Positions 25,916 through 63,616 of a DNA stretch of 64,000 bases are shown here, piece by piece. The stretch covers positions 64,394 through 128,393 of the forward strand of contig VGWF01000001.1 of the NCBI GenBank assembly GCA_016873715.1. The letters run 5' to 3'. Under the pieces are notes generated by a model. It was given only the letters and a program-made list of their open reading frames with translations, did no database searches and was not told the DNA's origin. The stretch's first letter is position 1. Every line of letters begins with the position of its first letter. Both the position numbers and the translations under genes were made by a program. Origin of the DNA: Lentisphaerota bacterium (lineage in GTDB: Bacteria; Verrucomicrobiota; Kiritimatiellia; PWTM01).

Positions 25916-26134
25916 TCAGGCCTTGGCGGCCAGTTTCTTCTTCAGCTTCACGGGGCGCCGGAGCAGCGCACGGACCGCATCGGGCTTCAGGCCGGCGACG
26001 ACCGTCTCGGGCATGCCCAGCCCGACCAGCCGCTTGCGCTGCACGCGCTGGCGGCGAAGCTTGTCGGCCGCCTTCTTCTTCGGCCGGCTCCGGTTCTTGT
26101 TCTTCAGCGTCCGTTGCTTGGTGTTCGTAGCCAT
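25916..26134 (-). CDS. Small highly basic hypothetical protein (72 aa, Lys/Arg-rich)
   Basis: Clean ORF with balanced codon usage (MATNTKQRTLKNKNRSRPKKK...). No homology recognised. Confidence 0.4.
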   Translation of the reverse strand: MATNTKQRTLKNKNRSRPKKKAADKLRRQRVQRKRLVGLGMPETVVAGLKPDAVRALLRRPVKLKKKLAAKA

Positions 26135-26228
26135 GATGTACCTCGTCTGCCCGCCGGGGGCTCCCCGCGCGAGCCGGCGCTTATACCATGCCCCGCCGCC
26201 GCGGGCAATGTCCGGCGCCTTCCGGGGC

Positions 26229-26454
26229 AGGGCAGACGCATCTTGTTCCTGTCGAAACCGAGCCGTGTGCGCGGGATCCTCAGGATTCCCCTTCCATCGC
26301 CGGGAAAGGGAGATCCCAGCCGAACGATCCTTGAATCAAGGCAAAGGCGTAGCCGCGTCGCACCCCCGCAACCGCAAGGGCTCCAGCGTCCACCCGCGAC
26401 TCCGCGCCCCGCCGCCCGAAAGGTGCCACGACCTCGAGGAAGATGCGTCTGCCC
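26229..26454. mobile_element. MITE-like non-autonomous element, copy 1 (full length, ~226 bp)
   Basis: 15-bp terminal inverted repeats gggcagacgcatctt ... aagatgcgtctgccc. The internal sequence is shared with the copies at 35876..36032 and 63328..63501. No coding capacity. Confidence 0.6.
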
Positions 26455-26561
26455 TGCCTCCCGGGGGATCCGGCCCGGGCCGGAGGCGCACGAGGGGGAG
26501 GACCGGGCGGGGACGGGATGCCCGGGGTTTCCAGATCTTGGAAGCCCCGGCGGCGCGGGAA

Positions 26562-27512
26562 TCAGGGATTGGAGGATCGGCGCTCCTTCAGGATCCGGAG
26601 CATGGCCCCGCCCATCGAGGTGCCGATGAGGTGGAAGGTCCCGGCGTTGCCGTTCCAGTGGTAGCCCTGTCCGTTGGGGGATTCCTCCTTCGGCCGCCAG
26701 AAGGGGCGGGTGTCGATGAAGGCGACGTTTCCGGTCGGGCCGAAGTACGCCGCCGCCTCCTCCTGGGCGCGCACGAGCGAGACGGCGCGCGGGTGGACGT
26801 CGTTGCTGCCGCCCTGTCCCGTGGCGGCGATGACGAACGGAAGGCCGGGCGCGTTGAATTCCCGGCGGATGTCCCGGACGAAGCAGATCATGTTCGTCGC
26901 ATAGGCGTCGTTGAAGGCCTGGTTCACGCGGTCGTTCCATCCCTGGTGCCAGCCGAAGCCGGCCAGGCGGATGGGGCGCCCCGCGACGGCGGGCCACACG
27001 CGGCCGGGATCGGCGAGGGTCGCCTTCACGGTCCGGACGAGTTCGAGATAGGACGGACCGGTCTCGCCGCCGGCGGACGGAGGCCGGAAGTCCTTCGCCA
27101 GGCTCTTGCCTCCCCATGCGAGCTTGATCAGCAGCACGGGCTCCTCGAGCGCGCCGCCGACAACCTGGCCGAAGCCGAGTTCCGGGCCGATGCGGTCGTC
27201 GCGCGCGCCGAATCCCGGCCGCAGGGCGCCGTTGCGCCCGAGGTACGAGACCCACACGTCGTCGCGTTCGGCCCAGGCGCCGTCCGCCCGGAGCCATTGC
27301 CGGAGCGCCTCCGGCGAGGCCGGGTTCCGCGCCAGCGCCTCCAGGCTTCCCTTGCCGCCGTTGCGCTTCGGGTCGGCCGCGATGAAGCCCTGTCCCTCCA
27401 TGTTCGACTGCCCGGCCAGGACGAAGGCCGTCACGGGCGCGGGATCGGCCGCGCAGGCCACGCGGGCGAGCAGCACGGTTGCGAGGACGGACCCGGGTGC
27501 GTGCGGGGGCAT
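26562..27512 (-). CDS. Secreted SGNH/sialate O-acetylesterase-like (SASA) carbohydrate esterase
   Basis: Signal peptide followed by FVLAGQSNMEGQG, the GQSNM catalytic motif of the SASA/DUF303 family. Confidence 0.75.
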   Translation of the reverse strand: MPPHAPGSVLATVLLARVACAADPAPVTAFVLAGQSNMEGQGFIAADPKRNGGKGSLEALARNPASPEALRQWLRADGAWAERDDVWVSYLGRNGALRPGFGARDDRIGPELGFGQVVGGALEEPVLLIKLAWGGKSLAKDFRPPSAGGETGPSYLELVRTVKATLADPGRVWPAVAGRPIRLAGFGWHQGWNDRVNQAFNDAYATNMICFVRDIRREFNAPGLPFVIAATGQGGSNDVHPRAVSLVRAQEEAAAYFGPTGNVAFIDTRPFWRPKEESPNGQGYHWNGNAGTFHLIGTSMGGAMLRILKERRSSNP

Positions 27513-28830: not shown

Positions 28831-31365
28831 TCAGGTGTTCTCCTCGTCCGCCCCGCCGAGTTCGGCGGGGGGCGCGTGGGGATTCTGCGGGATGTCGCCT
28901 TCGAGGTCGATGAGAATCTCCCGCGGGTCGGAGCCCTGGGCGGGGCCGACGATGCCGCGCTCCTCGAGGAGGTCCATCACGCGCGCGGCCCGGGTGTAGC
29001 CGATGCGGAGCCGCCGCTGCAGGGACGACGTCGAGGCCCGCCGGGTCTGCTTGATGATCTCGATGGACTGCTCGAGGATCTCCTCGTCCTCCTCCATGTC
29101 GGGGACGTCGGCCGACTTCTTCTCGATCTTCTCCCGGATGGAGGCCTCGTACTGCGGCGCGGCCTGGGCGCGCCAGTGATCGGCGATGGAGTGCACGTCG
29201 TGGTCGCTGACCATGCAGCCCTGCGCGCGCACGAGCCGGCCGATGCCGGGCGGCAGGAAGAGCATGTCGCCGCGGCCGAGAAGCTTGTCCGCGCCGTTCG
29301 CGTCGAGAATCGTCCGGCTGTCGTTCTTCTGGGCGACCTGGAACGCGATGCGCGCCGGGAAATTCGCCTTGATGGTCCCGGTGATGACGTCGACGGAGGG
29401 CCGCTGCGTGGCCAGGATCATGTGGATGCCCACGGCGCGGGAGAGCTGCGCGAGGCGGGCGATCTGGTTCTCGATCTCGGCCTGCGCGACGAGCATGAGG
29501 TCCGCCAGCTCGTCGACGACGATGACGATGTAGGGCACCCGGTCGGGGATCGCGGGGCCGTCGGCCGGCGGGGCGTCGCCGCCGAAGAGGTCCTGCTGCT
29601 TGACGATCGGCCGGGCGTTGAACGACTTGATGTTCCGCACCCCGGCGCGCGCGAAGAGCTTGTAACGCGCCTCCATCTCCTGGATCGCCCACCGCAGGCC
29701 GTGCATCACCTTCTTCGCGTCGGTGATGACCGGCACGACGAGGTGCGGCAGCTCGCGGTAGGCGGAGAACTCGACGATCTTCGGGTCGACCAGCATCAGG
29801 CGGAGTTCCGCGGGCGTCCGGGCCATCAGGAGGCCCGAGAGAAGGGCGTTCATGCAGACGGTCTTCCCGGAGCCCGTCGCCCCGGCGATCAGCATGTGGG
29901 GCATGTCGGCCAGGTCGGCGACGAGAACGCGTCCGCCGACGTCCTGCCCGACGGCCAGCGGCAGGGCCGCGCGGCTCCCGCGCCACGTGTCGCTCTCGAG
30001 GATCTCGCGGAGGTAGACGACCGAGGTCTTCGGGTTCGGCACCTCGATGCCGACGACGCCCTTGCCGGGGATCGGCGCCTGCACGCGGACGCTCTCCGCC
30101 TTGAGCGACAGGCCGATGTTGTTGCTCAGCCCCGTGATCTTCTCGACGCGCACGCCGGGCGCCGGCAGGAGTTCGTAGCGGGTCACGACCGGGCCGGTCT
30201 CGACGTTGGTGACGCGCGCCTCGATGCCGAAGTCGGCGAGGGTGTCGATCAGCGTCTGCTGCGAGTGCTGGAGGTCGTCGTGGATCGTCCTCTGCTCGGC
30301 GGGCGGCAGCGGGTCCAGCAGCGAGAACGGCGGCAGGGCGTAGGTTCCGCCTCCGCCGGCGCCCGGCGGACCGGGCGGCGTGGCCGCGGTGACGGACGGT
30401 TCGGGCGGCGGCTCCGGCTTGGGAGGCTTCTCCGGCCGCGGCGGCCGGGGCCGGGGCGGCGCCGGCTCGGGCGCGGGCGGCGCGGGAGGAGGCTCCGGTT
30501 CCGGCTCGGGTGGCGGCACGGCGCGTGCGACCGGCGGCTCGGGCGCGGGGCGCTCGGACCGGGCGGGAACGGGCTTCTCCGCCGCGGGCCGTTCGGCCGC
30601 AGGCTCGCGCGCGCGGCCGGATCGCGTCGCGGCGGCGGGGACCGCGGGCGCCGCGGCCAGACGGTCGGTGGACGGGATCGCCTGGTGCTGCTTCAGGGCC
30701 TCTTCCAGCGTGCGGCGCTTCTTCGCGACCTCGGTCTGCGCCTCCTTCAGCTGGTCGATGCGGTCCATCTTCGAGACGCGGCCCTCCTTCCATCGCTCGT
30801 GGAGCCTGCGGCCCTGCGCGACCAGCCATTGGGCGATGGCATAGGGGCTGACGCGGAAGAAGAAGATCAACCCCGCGGCCAGGCCGGTGGAGGCGACGAT
30901 GAGGGCGCCCGACTCGCCGAGGTACGGCGCGAGCAGGCGCGTGCCCAGCGTGTGGCCGACCATGCCGCCGCAGCTGCCGACGTTGAGCTTCTGCGCCCAG
31001 ATCGTCCACCAGAGCGGCCGCAGTTCGATGAGGATCGTCAGCGAGACGATCATCAGCACCAGCCAGAGCACGCGGGGGCCGACGCGGCCGACGCGCTGGA
31101 AGAGGATGTAGCCGGTCCAGACCAGCAGGCCGAACGGCAGCACGTAGGCCGTGACGCCCAGGCCCATGAAGAGGACGAAGGCGGTCCACGCGCCCGCGAG
31201 TCCGATCAGGTTCGCGGCGGGCCGGGTCGGGGGGTCCTTCAGGGTGGAGATGTCGGCCGGCGAGTAGGAGAACATGCTCAGGAGGAGCATGAGGCACAAC
31301 GCCAGCAGCACGATGCCGCCGAACTCGCGCCACCCCGTCCCGCCCGTTTCCTTCTTGACCGCCAT
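28831..31365 (-). CDS. ftsK: DNA translocase FtsK/SpoIIIE
   Basis: N-terminal TM helices, Pro-rich linker, Walker A GATGSGKT, ILATQRPSVDVITGTIKANFPARIAFQV, and C-terminal gamma winged helix (RRLRIGYTRAARVMDLLEERGIVGP). Start at MAVKKE. Confidence 0.9.
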   Translation of the reverse strand: MAVKKETGGTGWREFGGIVLLALCLMLLLSMFSYSPADISTLKDPPTRPAANLIGLAGAWTAFVLFMGLGVTAYVLPFGLLVWTGYILFQRVGRVGPRVLWLVLMIVSLTILIELRPLWWTIWAQKLNVGSCGGMVGHTLGTRLLAPYLGESGALIVASTGLAAGLIFFFRVSPYAIAQWLVAQGRRLHERWKEGRVSKMDRIDQLKEAQTEVAKKRRTLEEALKQHQAIPSTDRLAAAPAVPAAATRSGRAREPAAERPAAEKPVPARSERPAPEPPVARAVPPPEPEPEPPPAPPAPEPAPPRPRPPRPEKPPKPEPPPEPSVTAATPPGPPGAGGGGTYALPPFSLLDPLPPAEQRTIHDDLQHSQQTLIDTLADFGIEARVTNVETGPVVTRYELLPAPGVRVEKITGLSNNIGLSLKAESVRVQAPIPGKGVVGIEVPNPKTSVVYLREILESDTWRGSRAALPLAVGQDVGGRVLVADLADMPHMLIAGATGSGKTVCMNALLSGLLMARTPAELRLMLVDPKIVEFSAYRELPHLVVPVITDAKKVMHGLRWAIQEMEARYKLFARAGVRNIKSFNARPIVKQQDLFGGDAPPADGPAIPDRVPYIVIVVDELADLMLVAQAEIENQIARLAQLSRAVGIHMILATQRPSVDVITGTIKANFPARIAFQVAQKNDSRTILDANGADKLLGRGDMLFLPPGIGRLVRAQGCMVSDHDVHSIADHWRAQAAPQYEASIREKIEKKSADVPDMEEDEEILEQSIEIIKQTRRASTSSLQRRLRIGYTRAARVMDLLEERGIVGPAQGSDPREILIDLEGDIPQNPHAPPAELGGADEENT

Positions 31366-31473
31366 GCTTCGGCCCGCTCCGGTCGCGCCGAACGCGCGCA
31401 CATCCTCCGCGCGGCTCCGGCAGGCCCGGCGGCGCACTGCGCCCCCGGCTGCGGCCCGCCGATCCGCGAACGA

Positions 31474-32226: not shown

Positions 32227-32464
32227 GAATGCTCCCGCTGACTGCCATCCACTGCCGCGCCGTGAGCGCGGTGCGCCCGGGGGCCGGTTCGGTCCGCCCC
32301 CCGCCGCCGGTCGGCCGGCCCCCGGGGCCGCCGCTTCCAGCCGGCGCACAATTCGCGTGCAGACTAGACGATGCGAAGCCCGCAATCAAGCACGGGTTCC
32401 GCATCGCGGAGGTCCGGGCGCATCTCCGTCCTGCGCAGGGTGACGGCCGGGGGCGGGTGCCAAC

Positions 32465-32904
32465 GTAGTCCTCACGCTCCGCGTGAGGACGTCTGCGTAA
32501 TCCGGATTGTCATCACGCGGAGCGTGATGACTACTATGCAGGGCCACCGCCGATCTTGCGCGGGGGGATGGCCGGTAGTCCTCACGCTCCGCGTGAGGAC
32601 GTCTGCGTAATCCGGATTGTCATCACGCGGAGCGTGATGACTACCCTGCGGAGCCACGGCCGATCGTGCGCGGGGGGATGGCCGGTAGTCCTCACGCTCC
32701 GCGTGAGGACGTCTGCGTAATCCGGATTGTCATCACGCGGAGCGTGATGACTACTATGCAGGGCCACCGCCGATCTTGCGCGGGGGGATGGCCGGTAGTC
32801 CTCACGCTCCGCGTGAGGACATCTCCGCAACCCGGATGGTCATCACGCGGAGCGTGATGACGACCCTGCGGAGCCACCGCCGATCGTGCGCGGGGGGATG
32901 GCCG
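32465..32904. repeat. Tandem array of 4 x 110-bp units, each with two perfect 10-bp-stem hairpins (BIME/REP-like). Not CRISPR.
   Basis: Units begin at 32465, 32575, 32685 and 32795. Each holds gtcctcacgc-tcc-gcgtgaggac and gtcatcacgc-gga-gcgtgatgac 41 bp apart. The inter-hairpin spacers are themselves repeated in alternating A/B variants, so these are not unique CRISPR spacers. Confidence 0.85.
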
Positions 32905-33015
32905 GAGGGGCGCATCTCCGGTCCTGTGCCGCGACGACGAAGGCGCCCGCACGATCGGGTCCATGAATCGGAGATGCGCCCGGAGGTCCGGGCGCGGGAG
33001 GGGACGACGCGAAGC

Positions 33016-33068: not shown

Positions 33069-34406
33069 TTAGACGAGCGGGTCGCAGCCCGTCGAGATCG
33101 GGTGGAAGAGGCCGGGGCCCGGCTTCCACATCGACCGGTCGGGCACGAGCGCGTTCTTCGACGCCTTCAACAGCCAGTCCCACGTGAAGGTGCGGCCGGT
33201 CGTCGCCGCCAGCCGGCCGCCGATCGCGGTCAGGGTGCTCTCCGCGATGCGCATGCCCTCGTTGAGCGGCTTGCCGGCGCGGATGCTCTTGATCAGGTCG
33301 ACGTGCTCCTGGTCCATGCCGTTGACGCTCGGGCCGGAGTACTCCCAGATCTTCTCGCCCTTGTGGCCCATGATGCGGTTGGCGCAATCGCTGACCGCCT
33401 TGGTTCCGACGATCTTCTCGTTGCTGCGGCCCGTCCCCGGGCTGTGGCCGCTGAAGCTCAGGCACCGCGCCCCGTTCGCGTATTCGAACTCGGCGAAGAC
33501 GTGGTCCCAGATGTCGCCGTTGTACTTCGGCCACTGCGCGTCGTTCTTGAACGCGGCGGCGACCTTCTTCGCCTCCGTGCTGTAGTCGCGGCAGGCGCGG
33601 CCGCCGACGGCGGTGAACTTCTTCGGCGGGCCGTCGAAGCACCAGTTCATCACGTCGATGTTGTGGATGTGCTGCTCGCAGATCTGGTCGCCGGAGAGCC
33701 ACGTGAAGTGATACCAGTTCTCGCACTGCCACTCCATCTCCGTGAGCCCCTCCTTCATGCCGCGGTACCAGATGCCGCCGCCGTACCAGTAGCACTGGCC
33801 GCCGATCAGGTCGCCGATGGCGCCGCCGTGGATGCGCTTCATCAACTCGACGCGGCTGAACTCGTGGCGGCGCTGCGTGCCGCACACGATCGCCAGGCCC
33901 TTCTGCTCGGCGAGCTTCGAGGCCTCCATGAACACGCGGACGCCGGCGACGTCGGTCGCGACGGGCTTCTCGGTGAACACGTGCTTGCCCGCCTGGATCG
34001 CGGCCATCATCTGCCACGGACGGAAGCCCGGGGCGGTCGCCATCAGCAGCAGGTGCGTGTTCGTCTTGACGAGCTTCTCGTGGCAGTCGAAGCCGCCGAG
34101 GATCGCGTCGTCCGGGACGCGGATGCGGCCGGCGTACTTCGGATCCTTCATCAGCGCGTCGCGCAGCTTGCGCGCCTTGTCCGGGAACAGGTCGGCGAGG
34201 GCGACGACCACGATGCCGGGGTCGGCGTTCAGGCACTGCCGGATCGCGCCGCTGCCGCGGCCGCCGCAGCCGAGGAGGCCGATGCGGATCTCGTCCGAGC
34301 CGGCCGCGTGGACCGGCGCGACCGCCGCGCCGGCGAGGGTGGCGGCGCCGGCCAGGATGGCCGCGTCGCGCCCGGGAATCTGGGGGGCATTCATCTTCGT
34401 TTCCAT
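33069..34406 (-). CDS. Secreted Gfo/Idh/MocA-family NAD(P) oxidoreductase (glycosidase-like, GH109-type architecture)
   Basis: Signal peptide then IRIGLLGCGGRGSG Rossmann motif. Start at METKMN. Paralog of the next gene. Confidence 0.75.
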   Translation of the reverse strand: METKMNAPQIPGRDAAILAGAATLAGAAVAPVHAAGSDEIRIGLLGCGGRGSGAIRQCLNADPGIVVVALADLFPDKARKLRDALMKDPKYAGRIRVPDDAILGGFDCHEKLVKTNTHLLLMATAPGFRPWQMMAAIQAGKHVFTEKPVATDVAGVRVFMEASKLAEQKGLAIVCGTQRRHEFSRVELMKRIHGGAIGDLIGGQCYWYGGGIWYRGMKEGLTEMEWQCENWYHFTWLSGDQICEQHIHNIDVMNWCFDGPPKKFTAVGGRACRDYSTEAKKVAAAFKNDAQWPKYNGDIWDHVFAEFEYANGARCLSFSGHSPGTGRSNEKIVGTKAVSDCANRIMGHKGEKIWEYSGPSVNGMDQEHVDLIKSIRAGKPLNEGMRIAESTLTAIGGRLAATTGRTFTWDWLLKASKNALVPDRSMWKPGPGLFHPISTGCDPLV

Positions 34407-34440
34407 GGAAATGTCCTTTGGGTGAAGGGGTGCGCGGCGG

Positions 34441-35736
34441 CTACTTGTTCTTCCTCTTGCCGCCATCGGCCTTGGGCATGCCCGGCAGCTCGTAGATTCC
34501 CGGCACCGCGACCGGGGGCACCGGCAGCGCGTCGGACATTTTCAGGCCCGCCCGGGGCATGAGGTCGAGCTCGCAGCGCTGGATGAACCACTCGCGCTTC
34601 ATCTGCTGTCGGGAGTAGGCCGACTCGCGCGCCATGACCGCGCACATCGTGCTCTCGGTCACCTGCTGCGCCTCGTTGAGGTAGGCGCCGCCGCGGATGC
34701 TGGCGATCAGGTCCGTGTGCTCCTGGACGTAGGGGTCCGGGCTCGGTCCCTCGTACTTCCAGGGCTTCTCGCCCTGGATCGAGCCGCCGCAGTCGCTCGT
34801 GCCCTTCGTGCCGACGATCCGCTCGGAGACGTTCCCCGTCGTGTTCTCGATCTGGCGGCACATGCTGATCGTGCGGACGTCGTTCGGGTAGAAGAACTCC
34901 GTCCCGAAGTGGTCGTAGATGTGCCCGAACTCGGGGCCGGTCCGAAACTGGCGGCCGCCGATCGAGTGCACCTGCTCGGGCAGGGCGCGGAACGCCCAGT
35001 TGATCACGTCGAGGTTGTGTACGTGCTGCTCGACGATGTGATCGCCGGAGAGCCACGTGAAGTAGAGCCAGTTGCGGAGCTGCCACTCGACGTCGCTCTG
35101 GCCGGCCTCGCGGGGCTTCACCCACAGGCCGCCCATGTTCCAGTAGCACTGGGCGGAGACGAGGTCGCCGATGGCGCCGTCGTGGATGCGTTTCATCGTC
35201 TCGACGTAGCGCGGCTCGTGGCGGCGCTGCGTGCCCGCGACGACGGAGAGCTTCTTCTCCACCGAGGTCTTCGCCGACTCGAGCATCTTGCGCAGGCCCG
35301 CCGCGCAGACCGCAACGGGCTTCTCCGTGAAGATGTGCTTGCCGGCCGCGACGGCGGCCGCGAAGTGGATCGGACGGAACCCCGGCGGCGTCGCCAGGAT
35401 CACGAGGTCGATGCCGTCCGCCGCGAGGAGCTGCTGGTAGGCATCGAGCCCGACGAAGCAGCGGTTGTCCGGGACCTGGTGCTTGGTCTTGAGGCCCTGC
35501 AGGCGGTCCGTGAAGGCATCGGCCAGCGCGACGATCTTCACGCCCGGCGCGGAGGCCACGCAGTTCTCCGCGGCGCCGGATCCCCGGCCGCCGCAGCCGA
35601 TGACGCCGACGCGGATCGTGTCCGTCGCCGCCGTCCACCCGACGCGCGGCACCGCGCCGGCGATCGCCAGGCTTCCCACCGTCGCCGTCGAGTTCCCGAG
35701 GAACTGCCGGCGCGTCAACCCGCTCCGTCCTGCCAT
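34441..35736 (-). CDS. TAT-exported Gfo/Idh/MocA-family oxidoreductase (paralog)
   Basis: Twin-arginine motif TRRQFLGNS followed by IRVGVIGCGGRGSG. Roughly 50% identical by eye to the upstream gene. Confidence 0.8.
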   Translation of the reverse strand: MAGRSGLTRRQFLGNSTATVGSLAIAGAVPRVGWTAATDTIRVGVIGCGGRGSGAAENCVASAPGVKIVALADAFTDRLQGLKTKHQVPDNRCFVGLDAYQQLLAADGIDLVILATPPGFRPIHFAAAVAAGKHIFTEKPVAVCAAGLRKMLESAKTSVEKKLSVVAGTQRRHEPRYVETMKRIHDGAIGDLVSAQCYWNMGGLWVKPREAGQSDVEWQLRNWLYFTWLSGDHIVEQHVHNLDVINWAFRALPEQVHSIGGRQFRTGPEFGHIYDHFGTEFFYPNDVRTISMCRQIENTTGNVSERIVGTKGTSDCGGSIQGEKPWKYEGPSPDPYVQEHTDLIASIRGGAYLNEAQQVTESTMCAVMARESAYSRQQMKREWFIQRCELDLMPRAGLKMSDALPVPPVAVPGIYELPGMPKADGGKRKNK

Positions 35737-35875
35737 GGTCTCCTCCTGAGCTTTCGAAGCTGCGTCCGCCGGGCGCCGGATGCGCCTCCGTGTCGGACGC
35801 GGAATGTCCGGCAGAATAGACCCGCAGCCCGTCGGGACACAAGCACGGCGTGGCGAGAAACCAGGGCCGATGAAT

Positions 35876-36032
35876 CCGCCGGGAAAGGGAGACTCCAGCC
35901 GAACGATCCTCGAATCAAGGCGAAGGCGATGCCGCGTCGCACCCCCGCAACCGCAAGGGCTCCCGCGTCCGCCTGCGACTCCGCGCTCCGCCGGCCGGAC
36001 GGTACCACTACCGCAGGGAAGATGCGTCTGCC
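35876..36032. mobile_element. MITE-like element, copy 2 (5'-truncated, right TIR only)
   Basis: Shares gggaaagggaga-ccagccgaacgatcc-gaatcaaggc ... gtcgcacccccgcaaccgcaagggctcc ... aagatgcgtctgcc with copy 1. Lacks the left TIR. Confidence 0.55.
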
Positions 36033-36094
36033 GTGGGGGGGGAGACGCGGGATGAAGGACTCCGGCGGACGCCGGGCGTCGGCCGCAGCCGGTG

Positions 36095-43765: not shown

Positions 43766-44824
43766 ATGATTCGGGCGAAAGTCGTCGGGGCCGGGGGCTA
43801 TGGCGGGGTCGGCATCGTCGAGTTCCTGCTGGGCCATCCGGAGGCGAGAGTGACGACGCTGGCCGCGGCCGCGGACGTTGGAATCGCCATGAGCGACCTC
43901 TGGCCGCATCTGAAGGGCTTCTGCGACGACACGATCCTCGCCTACGACGATCCCCGGGCGCGCGAGCCGGCGGACGTTGTCTTCTTCGCCACTCCCGACG
44001 GCGTCGGCATGAGATTCGCCGAGGAGGAGATGAAGCGCGGCGCGAAGATCATCGATTTCAGCGGCGACTTCCGGTTCAACGACGTCGCGACCTACGACGA
44101 CTACGCGAAGCGCGCGGGCAAGCCGATCCAGCACGCCGCCCCGCACCTGCTCCCCCAGTCGGTCTACGGCCTCGCGGAGTTGGAGAACCCCCGGCTCAAC
44201 GCCGAGGCGAAGCTCGTCGCGAACGCGGGCTGCTTCGCGGTCAGCGTCCTGCTCGGCCTCGCCCCCGCGGCGAAGCACGGGCTGATCCGGCCGGACCGCG
44301 TCATCGCGGACTGCAAGACGGCGATCTCCGGCGCGGGCAAGAAGCCCAGCGCGACGTATCACTACCCCGCGCGCTACGAGAACATGAACGCCTACAAGCT
44401 GGCCGGGCACCAGCACGTGTGCGAGGTCGAGACGGAACTGAAGCGCATCTCCGGCCGCGACCACCGGATCGTCTTCACGGCGCAGGTCGTTCCGATGTGC
44501 CGCGGCATCCTGTCGTGCCTCTACGGCGATCTGCTCGACGGCGTCACGACGGAGCAGGTCCTCGAGGCCTACCGGTCCTACCACGGGAAGCACCCGTTCG
44601 TGCGGATCTTCGACCGGAAGGCGACGGTCGGCACGATCCACGTCCGCGGCTCGAACTTCTGCAACCTGACCGTCGACGTGGACGAGCGCACGCGGACGCT
44701 TCGCGTGATCTCGCACATCGACAATCTCGTGAAGGGCCAGGCCGGGAACGCGCTGCAGAACATGAACGTCATGTTCGGGCTGCCGCAGACCGCCGGGCTG
44801 ATGAAGCCCGGGATGAACCCGTAG
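43766..44824 (+). CDS. argC: N-acetyl-gamma-glutamyl-phosphate reductase
   Basis: VVGAGGYGG Rossmann motif and catalytic-Cys region LVANAGCFAVSVLLGLAP. Confidence 0.9.
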   Translation: MIRAKVVGAGGYGGVGIVEFLLGHPEARVTTLAAAADVGIAMSDLWPHLKGFCDDTILAYDDPRAREPADVVFFATPDGVGMRFAEEEMKRGAKIIDFSGDFRFNDVATYDDYAKRAGKPIQHAAPHLLPQSVYGLAELENPRLNAEAKLVANAGCFAVSVLLGLAPAAKHGLIRPDRVIADCKTAISGAGKKPSATYHYPARYENMNAYKLAGHQHVCEVETELKRISGRDHRIVFTAQVVPMCRGILSCLYGDLLDGVTTEQVLEAYRSYHGKHPFVRIFDRKATVGTIHVRGSNFCNLTVDVDERTRTLRVISHIDNLVKGQAGNALQNMNVMFGLPQTAGLMKPGMNP

Positions 44825-44837
44825 CGGCGCTGCGCGC

Positions 44838-44935
44838 CGAACATCGAACGCCGAACATCGAACATCGAACACCGAACATCGAACACCGAACACCGAACAT
44901 CGAACACCGAACACCGGACATCGAACGCCGAACGC
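44838..44935. repeat. Heptanucleotide microsatellite (CGAACAY)14
   Basis: 14 consecutive 7-bp units (cgaacat / cgaacac / cgaacgc / cggacat) starting 14 nt after the argC stop. Intergenic. Confidence 0.85.
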
Positions 44936-45055
44936 GAACAGCCGCCAGACGCCGGTGACGGAGCCCGGCCCCATGCTCGGACCCCGGACAAGGGCACGGC
45001 GCGCCGCTTCCGAACCTCTGGACCTGTGAACCGCTGAACCCGCGCACCCGCCCCT

Positions 45056-45673
45056 GTGCCTCCCTACCGCCACATCCTCGCCGACATCGGCGTCGTGACG
45101 CTGCGCATGAACTTCGCGGGGGCGGCGGTCCGCATGGCGGCCGCCTGCGGGAAGGCCGCGGTCCGCGGGCCGGCGGCGCTGATGAAGGCGTTCTACGGGG
45201 ATCCGATGCTGGCCGAGTACGAATGCGGGCGCCGCGGCCGCGCGGAGTTCGTCGGCCATTTCCGGGAGAAGGTCGGGTTTCGCGGGGGCGACGACGAGTT
45301 CGTCGCGATCTGGCGCTCGGTGTTCTCGGAGAACGAGCCGATGATCGACTTCTGGCGGTCGGTGGCCGGCCGCCGTGCGGATGTCTGGTTCTTCTCGAAC
45401 ACCGGCGAGATGCACGTGCCGTGGGTCTACGAGGCCTTCCCGCGGATGGCGGTCCACCGGGGGCAGGCCCTGTCCTACGAACTGGGCGTCATGAAGCCCG
45501 ATCCCTCGTTCTTCCGGCTCGGGCTCGGCCGGTTGGGGCTGGCTGCGGAGGACTGTCTCTTCATCGACGACCAGGCGGCGAACTGCGAGGCCGCGCGGGC
45601 CTGCGGGATCGAGAGCATCCACTACACCGACGCGCCCTCCGCCCTTGCCGCCTTGCGGGCGCGGCTGCGGTGA
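45056..45673 (+). CDS. HAD-superfamily hydrolase
   Basis: GTG start. N-terminal DIG motif (ILADIGVV) and C-terminal FIDDQAANCEAARACGIESIHY, a HAD motif IV-like. Confidence 0.55.
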   Translation: MPPYRHILADIGVVTLRMNFAGAAVRMAAACGKAAVRGPAALMKAFYGDPMLAEYECGRRGRAEFVGHFREKVGFRGGDDEFVAIWRSVFSENEPMIDFWRSVAGRRADVWFFSNTGEMHVPWVYEAFPRMAVHRGQALSYELGVMKPDPSFFRLGLGRLGLAAEDCLFIDDQAANCEAARACGIESIHYTDAPSALAALRARLR

Positions 45674-63176: not shown

Positions 63177-63265
63177 CACGGCCGCGACGGAGCGCGGCCC
63201 TCCATCCCCGTCCTCCCGCATCTCCATGGAACGGGCCCGGAGGGCCGCGCTCCGTCGCGGTCGTG
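63177..63265. terminator. Long hairpin (27-bp stem, 1 mismatch, 35-nt loop) downstream of creD
   Basis: cacggccgcgacggagcgcggccctcc ... ggagggccgcgctccgtcgcggtcgtg. Confidence 0.35.
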
Positions 63266-63327
63266 TCCGTGCGTGCGTCACCTGGGGGGTCGCCGGATAC
63301 CCGGACCCCAGCAGGGGATTGGGGCTA

Positions 63328-63501
63328 GGGCAGACGCATCTTGCTCCTGTCGAAACCGGGCCGTGTGCGCGGGATCCCGCGCGATCCGGCCGGCCTGGTG
63401 CGCGTCGCACCCCCGCAACCGCAAGGGCTCCAGCGTCCACCAGCCACTCCGCGCTCCGCCGACCGAAAGGCGCCACGACCTCAAGCAAGATGCGTCTGCC
63501 C
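63328..63501. mobile_element. MITE-like element, copy 3 (both TIRs, internal deletion variant, ~174 bp)
   Basis: gggcagacgcatcttg ... caagatgcgtctgccc. Shares the first ~50 bp and last ~90 bp with copy 1. Lacks the central ~55 bp that is present in copies 1 and 2. Confidence 0.6.
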
Positions 63502-63616
63502 TGGGATTGGGGCGTCGCTTGACGGCCGGACTCCCGTTCGTTCTAATACAGGTACGACGTTCCAACTGATGAACAATCCGCCGGGCGGGCGGCGGGGACG
63601 GAGGGGCGGGGGAGGC

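Follow-up and report, generated by a model that had tools for sequence, protein, structure and literature searches.

Insertion by a DDE transposase leaves a signature of inverted ends on the element and direct repeats of the target around it, and in the ISfinder family table the ISAs1 family is marked by CAGGG ends and a target duplication of 8–10 bp. Those IS4 subgroups that have CA ends and duplications of 10–12 bp start with CAT. Ends of the Tn3 family are about 38 bp long, start with GGGG and are accompanied by a 5-bp duplication. For the Correia elements of Neisseria, promoter, terminator and RNase III-site activity have been described. The MaeMITEa-h families of Microcystis aeruginosa comprise elements of 176–429 bp in 20–240 copies (PMC2779907). 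TIMEs, the Tn3-derived inverted-repeat miniature elements, are non-autonomous, keep only the transposon ends and rely on a transposase in trans (PMC4133298). ISArsp11, a 1,306-bp member of the ISAs1 family on the Arthrobacter plasmid pA58H3, has the IRL CAGGGCTGATGCAAAGTCG and a 10-bp direct repeat GGAACAGCAC (PMC6305408).

Here we describe an element of which three copies lie in the window, that is, the whole stretch of 64,000 nucleotides that was analysed, from an uncultured Verrucomicrobiota/Kiritimatiellia-like lake bacterium with a GC content of about 71%. These copies very probably represent a non-autonomous MITE that arose from an ISAs1-family insertion sequence and is mobilised by it in trans. 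They form a new MITE family of a well-known kind. Like MaeMITEa-h and the Correia-type MITEs, the element is shorter than 600 bp, has inverted repeats and target duplications, occurs in many intergenic copies, has strong hairpin potential and forms internally deleted subfamilies. It differs from them in sequence family and host and in that its parent IS family is identifiable from the ends; of the activities described for Correia elements it shows no sign. With TIMEs it shares the non-autonomous state and the retention of transposon ends, but its ends are 17 bp long, start with CAGGG and come with a 10-bp duplication. The length class of its inverted repeats and its 10-bp target duplication are those of ISAs1-family insertion sequences, and the terminal pattern CAGGGC-GA-GCA is common to the element and ISArsp11. 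By contrast, ISAs1-family insertion sequences are about 1.3 kb long and carry a transposase gene, whereas the MITE (at most 393 bp in that comparison) has none, its interior is unrelated to the one comparable ISAs1 5' end, and it resides in a high-GC Verrucomicrobiota/Kiritimatiellia-like host.

Three copies in the window

A three-way alignment delimits exactly three copies of the element, all on the forward strand (Table 1), and an nhmmer profile built from twelve long copies finds these same three alone within the window. The earlier note, made from the letters of the window, had reported 15-bp terminal inverted repeats on a first copy of about 226 bp. The 15-mer GGGCAGACGCATCTT is found exactly at the places it gave for copy 1 (26230–26244 on the forward and 26440–26454 on the reverse strand), again at 63328–63342 and 63487–63501, and with one mismatch at the right end of copy 2 (36019–36033); these five matches compare with 0.16 expected from dinucleotide-preserving shuffles. 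Outside the 15-mer, every complete copy has CA on the left and TG on the right, so that the inverted repeat is in fact the 17-mer CAGGGCAGACGCATCTT. Complete copies are thus bounded by CAGGGCAGACGCATCTT...AAGATGCGTCTGCCCTG, and copy 1 grows to 229 bp. The similar sequences noted at 35876..36032 and 63328..63501 are likewise real and align as claimed, while their bounds shift outward: a degenerate left end extends copy 2, and the 17-bp repeat extends copy 3.

Table 1. Positions of the element copies, their ends and their target duplications (window coordinates), with target duplications from four other loci
Feature	Position	Strand	Sequence	Remark
MITE copy 1	26228..26456	+		229-bp short form, without the 164-bp central hairpin module found in the 393-bp form
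Copy 1, left 17-bp terminal inverted repeat	26228..26244	+	CAGGGCAGACGCATCTT	
Copy 1, right 17-bp terminal inverted repeat	26440..26456	-		
Copy 1, left target-site duplication	26218..26227	.	CCTTCCGGGG	9/10 match to 26457-26466
Copy 1, right target-site duplication	26457..26466	.	CCTCCCGGGG	
Copy 1, 28-nt core	26357..26384	+		
MITE copy 2	35862..36035	+		174 bp
Copy 2, degenerate left end	35862-35875		CAGGGCCGATGAAT	joined to middle block
Copy 2, right end	36019-36035			one mismatch
MITE copy 3	63326..63503	+		178 bp; first base T, not C
Copy 3, left target-site duplication	63316..63325	.	GGATTGGGGC	10/10 match to 63504-63513
Copy 3, right target-site duplication	63504..63513	.	GGATTGGGGC	
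Target duplication, L002			GGGGAGTGAA	10/10
Target duplication, L015			GGGGGCGGCG	10/10
Target duplication, L019			GGCTCACTCC	10/10
Target duplication, L009			GGAGGATGGC/GGAGGATGAC	9/10

All three fall short of the main form of the family, which is 393 bp long; they are deletion derivatives of that form and appear as a mosaic in the alignment. In copy 1, left and right arms enclose a middle block. Copy 2 keeps the middle block and the right arm behind its degenerate left end and lacks module A, the start of module B and the central hairpin. Copy 3 joins the left arm through a short, different piece to the right arm; it is a one-off that corresponds to the 393-bp form minus the stretch between two CGGGATCC repeats, and it keeps the 3' part of the central module. 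A 28-mer core, GTCGCACCCCCGCAACCGCAAGGGCTCC, is common to all three and occurs in the window exactly and only at 26357, 35936 and 63404, each time on the forward strand, where none is expected.

A family of dispersed intergenic insertions

The earlier note had proposed a wider search for copies, and this search revealed about 18 further dispersed insertion sites in a metagenome. An exact scan with a 24-mer of the core gave 20 matches in the metagenome collection, all on contigs Ga019411x–Ga019412x, that is, from one project, and 0 matches in 185,579 GTDB species-representative genomes. Two of the metagenome sets are the window's own loci (L011 is copy 2; L021–L023 are copy 1), and the flanks of the remaining matches are unrelated. 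Counted by their flanks, there are about 21 distinct insertion sites, of which about 18 (in L001–L020) lie beyond the window's three. The nhmmer profile added one partial copy in L016; over 1.2 Mb of other loci, from relatives, it had no match, and blastn of the 393-bp element against plasmids returned none either. Single contigs of 20–64 kb hold two or three copies, which would extrapolate to roughly a hundred or more copies in a genome.

The earlier note had placed the window's copies in intergenic or promoter-proximal positions, and all 20 insertions that we examined are intergenic: they lie between open reading frames that bear the coding signature of the genome, and the genes on either side are often divergent. 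The element's orientation relative to the neighbouring genes is mixed and follows no rule. The neighbours are ordinary chromosomal genes, encoding a SASA-type esterase, a PgsA-type transferase, DUF2062, PepA, CreD and an IclR-type regulator as well as GFO/IDH/MocA oxidoreductases and a Glucosamine_iso-family protein (glucosamine-6-P isomerase/6-phosphogluconolactonase family). The element itself is non-coding, again in line with the earlier note. Its longest open reading frame has no Pfam match, and two of the three length differences among its variants (164, 215 and 18 bp) are not multiples of three.

Target-site duplications, which the earlier note had suggested looking for, accompany many of the insertions. 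Of 15 complete copies, 6 are flanked by 10-bp direct repeats that match at 9 or more of 10 positions; for random 10-mer pairs taken from these loci, the chance of such a match is 1.3e-4 per copy. Four of these are perfect (L002, L015, L019 and window copy 3) and two match at 9 of 10 positions (window copy 1 and L009); L018 has an 11-bp direct repeat that matches at 10 of 11. In about half of the complete copies the flanking repeats are weaker or missing, and there is no clean duplication. At window copy 2 the flanks match at 5 of 10 positions, which gives no clear duplication, and the copy in L001 has none. Some of these cases are evidently chimeric assemblies. In L009, L012 and L014 one flank of the MITE copy is common to all three and the other flank differs, evidently because the metagenome assembler switched paths inside the repeat, and for the same reason what is read inside long copies may be a consensus. 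As a separate arrangement, L004 653–1206 holds two copies head to tail and 10 bp apart (CTCGCCCACC), the first a short form truncated at its 5' end, the second a 411-bp form.

Folding and conservation of the centre

The conserved core had been proposed in the earlier note as a possible functional RNA or protein-binding module. Taken further, this would make the element first and foremost a regulatory module or a gene for a structured non-coding RNA, whose centre (the long hairpin and the 28-nt core) is kept by host selection, with mobility secondary, a reading that we consider quite unlikely. Three observations speak for it. Both strands fold better than shuffled sequences (z = -6.8 and -5.7 for the 393-nt form; z = -3.3 to -5.7 for the window copies). 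Variable positions are about three times rarer in alignment columns 129–340 (15/194) than in the outer parts (45/200; Fisher p = 4e-5), substitutions per 100 columns number about 9 in the central hairpin as against 17–33 elsewhere, and the 28-mer is identical across the three window copies.

Several points weaken this reading. Elements with inverted repeats fold well by construction, and the strong folding arises because this one combines such repeats with an internal hairpin of about 190 nt in its long copies. The invariance of the core is partly an artefact of the search: the metagenome copies were picked by means of the core, which makes its constancy among them circular, and the two copies that were retrieved otherwise (L004 796–1206 and L004 653–787) each have one substitution in the 28-mer. 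Moreover, short-read assemblers collapse repeat interiors that extend beyond the k-mer: variants farther than a k-mer or read length from unique flanks cannot be phased, and the majority path is output, so that uniform centres and variable ends are to be expected. Such path switching did take place, as the chimeric contigs show, and repeat collapse possibly contributes to the invariance of the core.

Direct searches for an RNA also speak against this reading. The window has no match in Rfam 15 at the gathering threshold, and a full copy, searched at E <= 10, gives only chance-level matches (E of 3 or more). Across the twelve long copies RNAalifold returns a covariation term of +2.2, a penalty, and both sides have changed in 2 of 128 pairs, two measures with no power here, given that the copies are 86–100% identical. 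Single changes that keep a wobble pair are about as frequent as those that break a pair, as expected without selection. Nor did the promoter and terminator scan call a site inside the element, and its orientation towards neighbouring genes follows no rule. Finally, the central hairpin is dispensable, as the 229-bp form exists without it at several sites. Without an Rfam match or covariation, and with the core substituted in both copies that were retrieved independently of the probe, the proposed functional module was not borne out. A related idea is that the hairpin module of about 190 nt together with the 28-nt core is functional cargo, either a structured RNA or a binding platform recruited by the host at many promoters. 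We give it only a small chance; if true, an uncultured Kiritimatiellia lineage would have in this family a dispersed regulatory module and not purely selfish DNA.

The ends point to ISAs1

The parentage of the MITE can be read from its termini. All complete copies have CAGGG ends except window copy 3 (TAGGG), and 11 of the first 13 terminal bases are common to the element and ISArsp11. A scan with the 17-mer across a collection of viral contigs (IMG/VR) returned six loci. In two, L105 and L109, the 17-mer lies inside repeated coding sequence, and these look like chance matches. The other four (L104, L106, L107 and L108; 45–52% GC) have the same sequence after the 17-mer and four different ones before it. 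The preceding flanks diverge exactly at CAGGG, which identifies the 17-mer as the terminus of an element there, identical to that of the MITE at 17 of 17 positions. An open reading frame, MTNTNTPIAFFSSVTDPRVLRTQKHSLESILFISLCAVICGAEGW, starts 72 nt inside this terminus and matches PF13808 (DDE_Tnp_1_assoc, DDE_Tnp_1-associated) at 47.5 bits with a cut-off of 32.3. Relatives of its 45-aa N-terminus in the protein database are solely Muribaculaceae-type transposase fragments. One homologue (P0003, 78% identical) matches NF033564, "ISAs1 family transposase", over positions 1–42 (E = 1e-13), a match to a fragment that lies below the whole-protein cut-off. A related copy has the end variant CACGGTTGACGCATCTT, and a blastn search of plasmids and phages with the Muribaculaceae IS end found nothing. 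As an aside, the four 'viral' contigs all end in or abut this one Muribaculaceae-type ISAs1 element, with contig breaks inside the IS.

Judged by sequence, the ends of the window element are ISAs1 ends, because they combine CAGGG termini and a 10-bp duplication with an exact 17-mer found at the terminus of an element that encodes an ISAs1-type transposase; the family-wide rule for ends and duplications that enters here draws on the ISfinder table and on one published example, ISArsp11. A rival for the parentage is an IS4-family element of the ISH8, IS231 or IS4Sa-type subgroups. Some IS4 subgroups in the ISfinder table also have 5'-CA ends and a 10-bp duplication, and the DDE_Tnp_1 fold is common to ISAs1 and IS4 transposases. 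However, the ends here read CAGGG and not CAT, and both the resemblance to ISArsp11 and the 17-of-17 identity to the terminus of an element encoding a PF13808/NF033564 ISAs1-type N-terminus favour ISAs1. The IS4 subgroups are the weaker fit, and an IS4 origin is very unlikely.

The earlier note had also proposed a search for a cognate transposase with matching ends, and this search, covering about 1.5 Mb of host-population sequence and relatives' loci, turned up none. A fuzzy search for ends in the window, L001–L023, L110–L113 and the relatives' loci found no two ends paired at a distance above 411 bp, and a tblastn search with the N-terminus of ISAs1 gave no match in the host-population sequence (about 260 kb) or the relatives' loci. 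Local alignment of the element's interior with the Muribaculaceae 5' region, the one ISAs1 5' end to which this comparison is limited, scores 18, not significantly above shuffles (15.7 +/- 2.1). A candidate remnant of a transposase N-terminus in module B (DP(S)R...LES) was dropped, as the interior alignment does not rise above shuffles.

Size forms and a model for their spread

Counting the outer CA/TG, ten copies are exactly 393 bp long and one is 394 bp; these 11 are 93–100% identical. Two copies of 411 bp are about 86% identical to the 393-bp copies; in them, a different module of about 73 nt takes the place of the internal one of about 55 nt. L007 likewise holds the 229-bp form seen in window copy 1, and the junction of this form, ...GC|CGCGTCGCAC..., is common to copy 1, L007, window copy 2 and L004 653–787. 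Its presence at four independent loci indicates that the short form is itself a propagated subfamily. By contrast with these recurrent forms, window copies 2 and 3 and L010 contain one-off deletions between short internal direct repeats; the repeats that bound internal deletions are CGCG, CGGGATCC and GCGT. The 164-bp central module was considered as a nested element in its own right, but it does not occur outside MITE copies in L001–L023 or the window, and its CGCG junction is compatible with either insertion or microhomology deletion. Overall the copies span 174–411 bp.

Although such one-off events in window copies 2 and 3 and L010 show that deletion between short repeats does occur, it is scarcely credible that the copies are independent in-situ remnants of a full-length IS that never transposed as miniatures, because independent deletions would not repeat the same junctions, and here ten different sites have an identical length of 393 bp and identical internal junctions (one more has 394 bp), the 411-bp variant is found twice and the 229-type junction at least four times.

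The 393-, 411- and 229-bp forms were thus copied as miniatures, which leads back to the ISAs1-derived MITE. In this model, a DDE transposase of the ISAs1 type, encoded elsewhere, would recognise the 17-bp ends (5'-CAGGGCAGACGCATCTT), and its staggered cuts, 10 bp apart, would produce the 10-bp direct repeats on insertion. The 393-bp main form, the 411-bp form and the 229-bp short form would spread in this way, and further one-off internal deletions produced the 174- and 178-bp copies. As no autonomous partner was found, mobilisation in trans is an inference. A host function is not needed to explain the copies, and effects on neighbouring genes would be incidental; the family is ordinary selfish DNA. 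The MITE-like character claimed in the earlier note accordingly stands, given terminal inverted repeats, 10-bp target duplications, the non-coding sequence and dispersal over at least about 21 intergenic sites, with identical internal junctions within subfamilies and a related species that lacks the element.

The main value of these findings lies in annotation, as the family accounts for three non-coding repeats of the window. It also explains many contig breaks and chimeric joins in assemblies of the host organism. Four perfect duplications and the near-identity of the 393–394-bp copies point to an ISAs1-type transposition system that was recently active in an uncultured high-GC Verrucomicrobiota/Kiritimatiellia lineage. 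Insertions adjoin promoters, which makes them candidates for strain-specific differences in expression. The current understanding of how MITEs work is unchanged.

Relatives, the copy 1 site and its surroundings

The best relatives of the FtsK encoded at 28831–31437 are found in MAGs labelled Verrucomicrobiota and Kiritimatiellia. The foremost, L024 (CAYODK010000176.1; 94% protein identity), is collinear with the window at about 85% DNA identity from position 30797 down to 18951. In L024, the closest sequenced relative, there is no copy of the MITE family, and copy 1 is absent from the orthologous spacer: window positions 26562 and 26217 are joined directly. The 345 bp missing there consist of about 106 bp of further spacer in addition to the MITE and its duplication, so that the empty site is not base-precise. 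The spacer of about 105 bp between the SASA stop codon and copy 1 (26457–26561), which includes a 29-nt palindrome at 26522–26550, is thus also absent from L024, and the sequence just past the insertion is nearly identical in the two. The absence of copy 1 from L024 is compatible with insertion in the window's lineage. For its MITE reading, the earlier note had named as contrary evidence an absence of further insertions bounded by inverted repeats and of empty sites in relatives; such insertions are found elsewhere, and the L024 spacer lacks the element. Within the host population, copies 1 and 2 are fixed: the spacer has the same length in every contig that contains the neighbouring protein, and both loci were reassembled with the same spacing from several samples. 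Synteny with relatives ends at about 32395, short of the copy 2 site.

Next to copy 1 lies a gene for a very basic 72-aa protein (MATNTKQRTLKNKNRSRPKKK...; 25916–26134, reverse strand) that belongs to no Pfam family. The relative L024, at 85% DNA identity, has a nearly identical sequence at the gene start and over about 80 bp upstream of it. On the reverse strand, a TTGCCC-17 nt-TATAAG motif (26203–26208 and 26180–26185) can be read as the predicted promoter of this gene; the consensus promoter scan did not call it, its last base not being T. Copy 1 lies 19 bp upstream of the putative -35 box.

Other repeats in the window and related loci

Beyond the MITE, the window holds several other repeats. 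At 32465–32905, a 110-bp unit is repeated in tandem in four copies that are 93% identical, with a weaker copy from about 32355. The unit, non-coding by position, contains two hairpins, GTCCTCACGC-TCC-GCGTGAGGAC and GTCATCACGC-GGA-GCGTGATGAC. Collinearity with the two closest relatives, L103 and L026, stops at window positions 32391–32395, where this array begins to border on it. Another tandem array, different from the first, with a unit of about 110 bp and at least seven units, is present at L009 5778–6514 (= L012 203–939) and also at L007 4207–4346; its units contain GGAGGATGACAACCGAATGGGGG and the hairpin GGGAGGGCCGCGCTCCGCGCGG, and a 393-bp MITE copy is inserted within one unit. Arrays of about 110 bp built around GC-rich hairpins seem to recur in the host genome. 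Between creD and MITE copy 3, at 63177–63265, lies a 35-nt inverted repeat (89% complementary, 19-nt loop) that includes GGAGGGCCGCGCTCCG, a sequence resembling the hairpin of the L009 array.

Two adjacent paralogous genes for GFO/IDH/MocA oxidoreductases (33069–34466 and 34441–35736, reverse strand) are 71–75% identical at the DNA level over matched stretches, and the block that they form (33069–35736) is absent beside ftsK in relatives. Finally, the heptamer CCGAACA is repeated 14 times at 44837–44940, which can alternatively be read as five copies of a 21-mer; the array overlaps the last bases of an open reading frame ending at 44824 and lies upstream of one starting at 45056.
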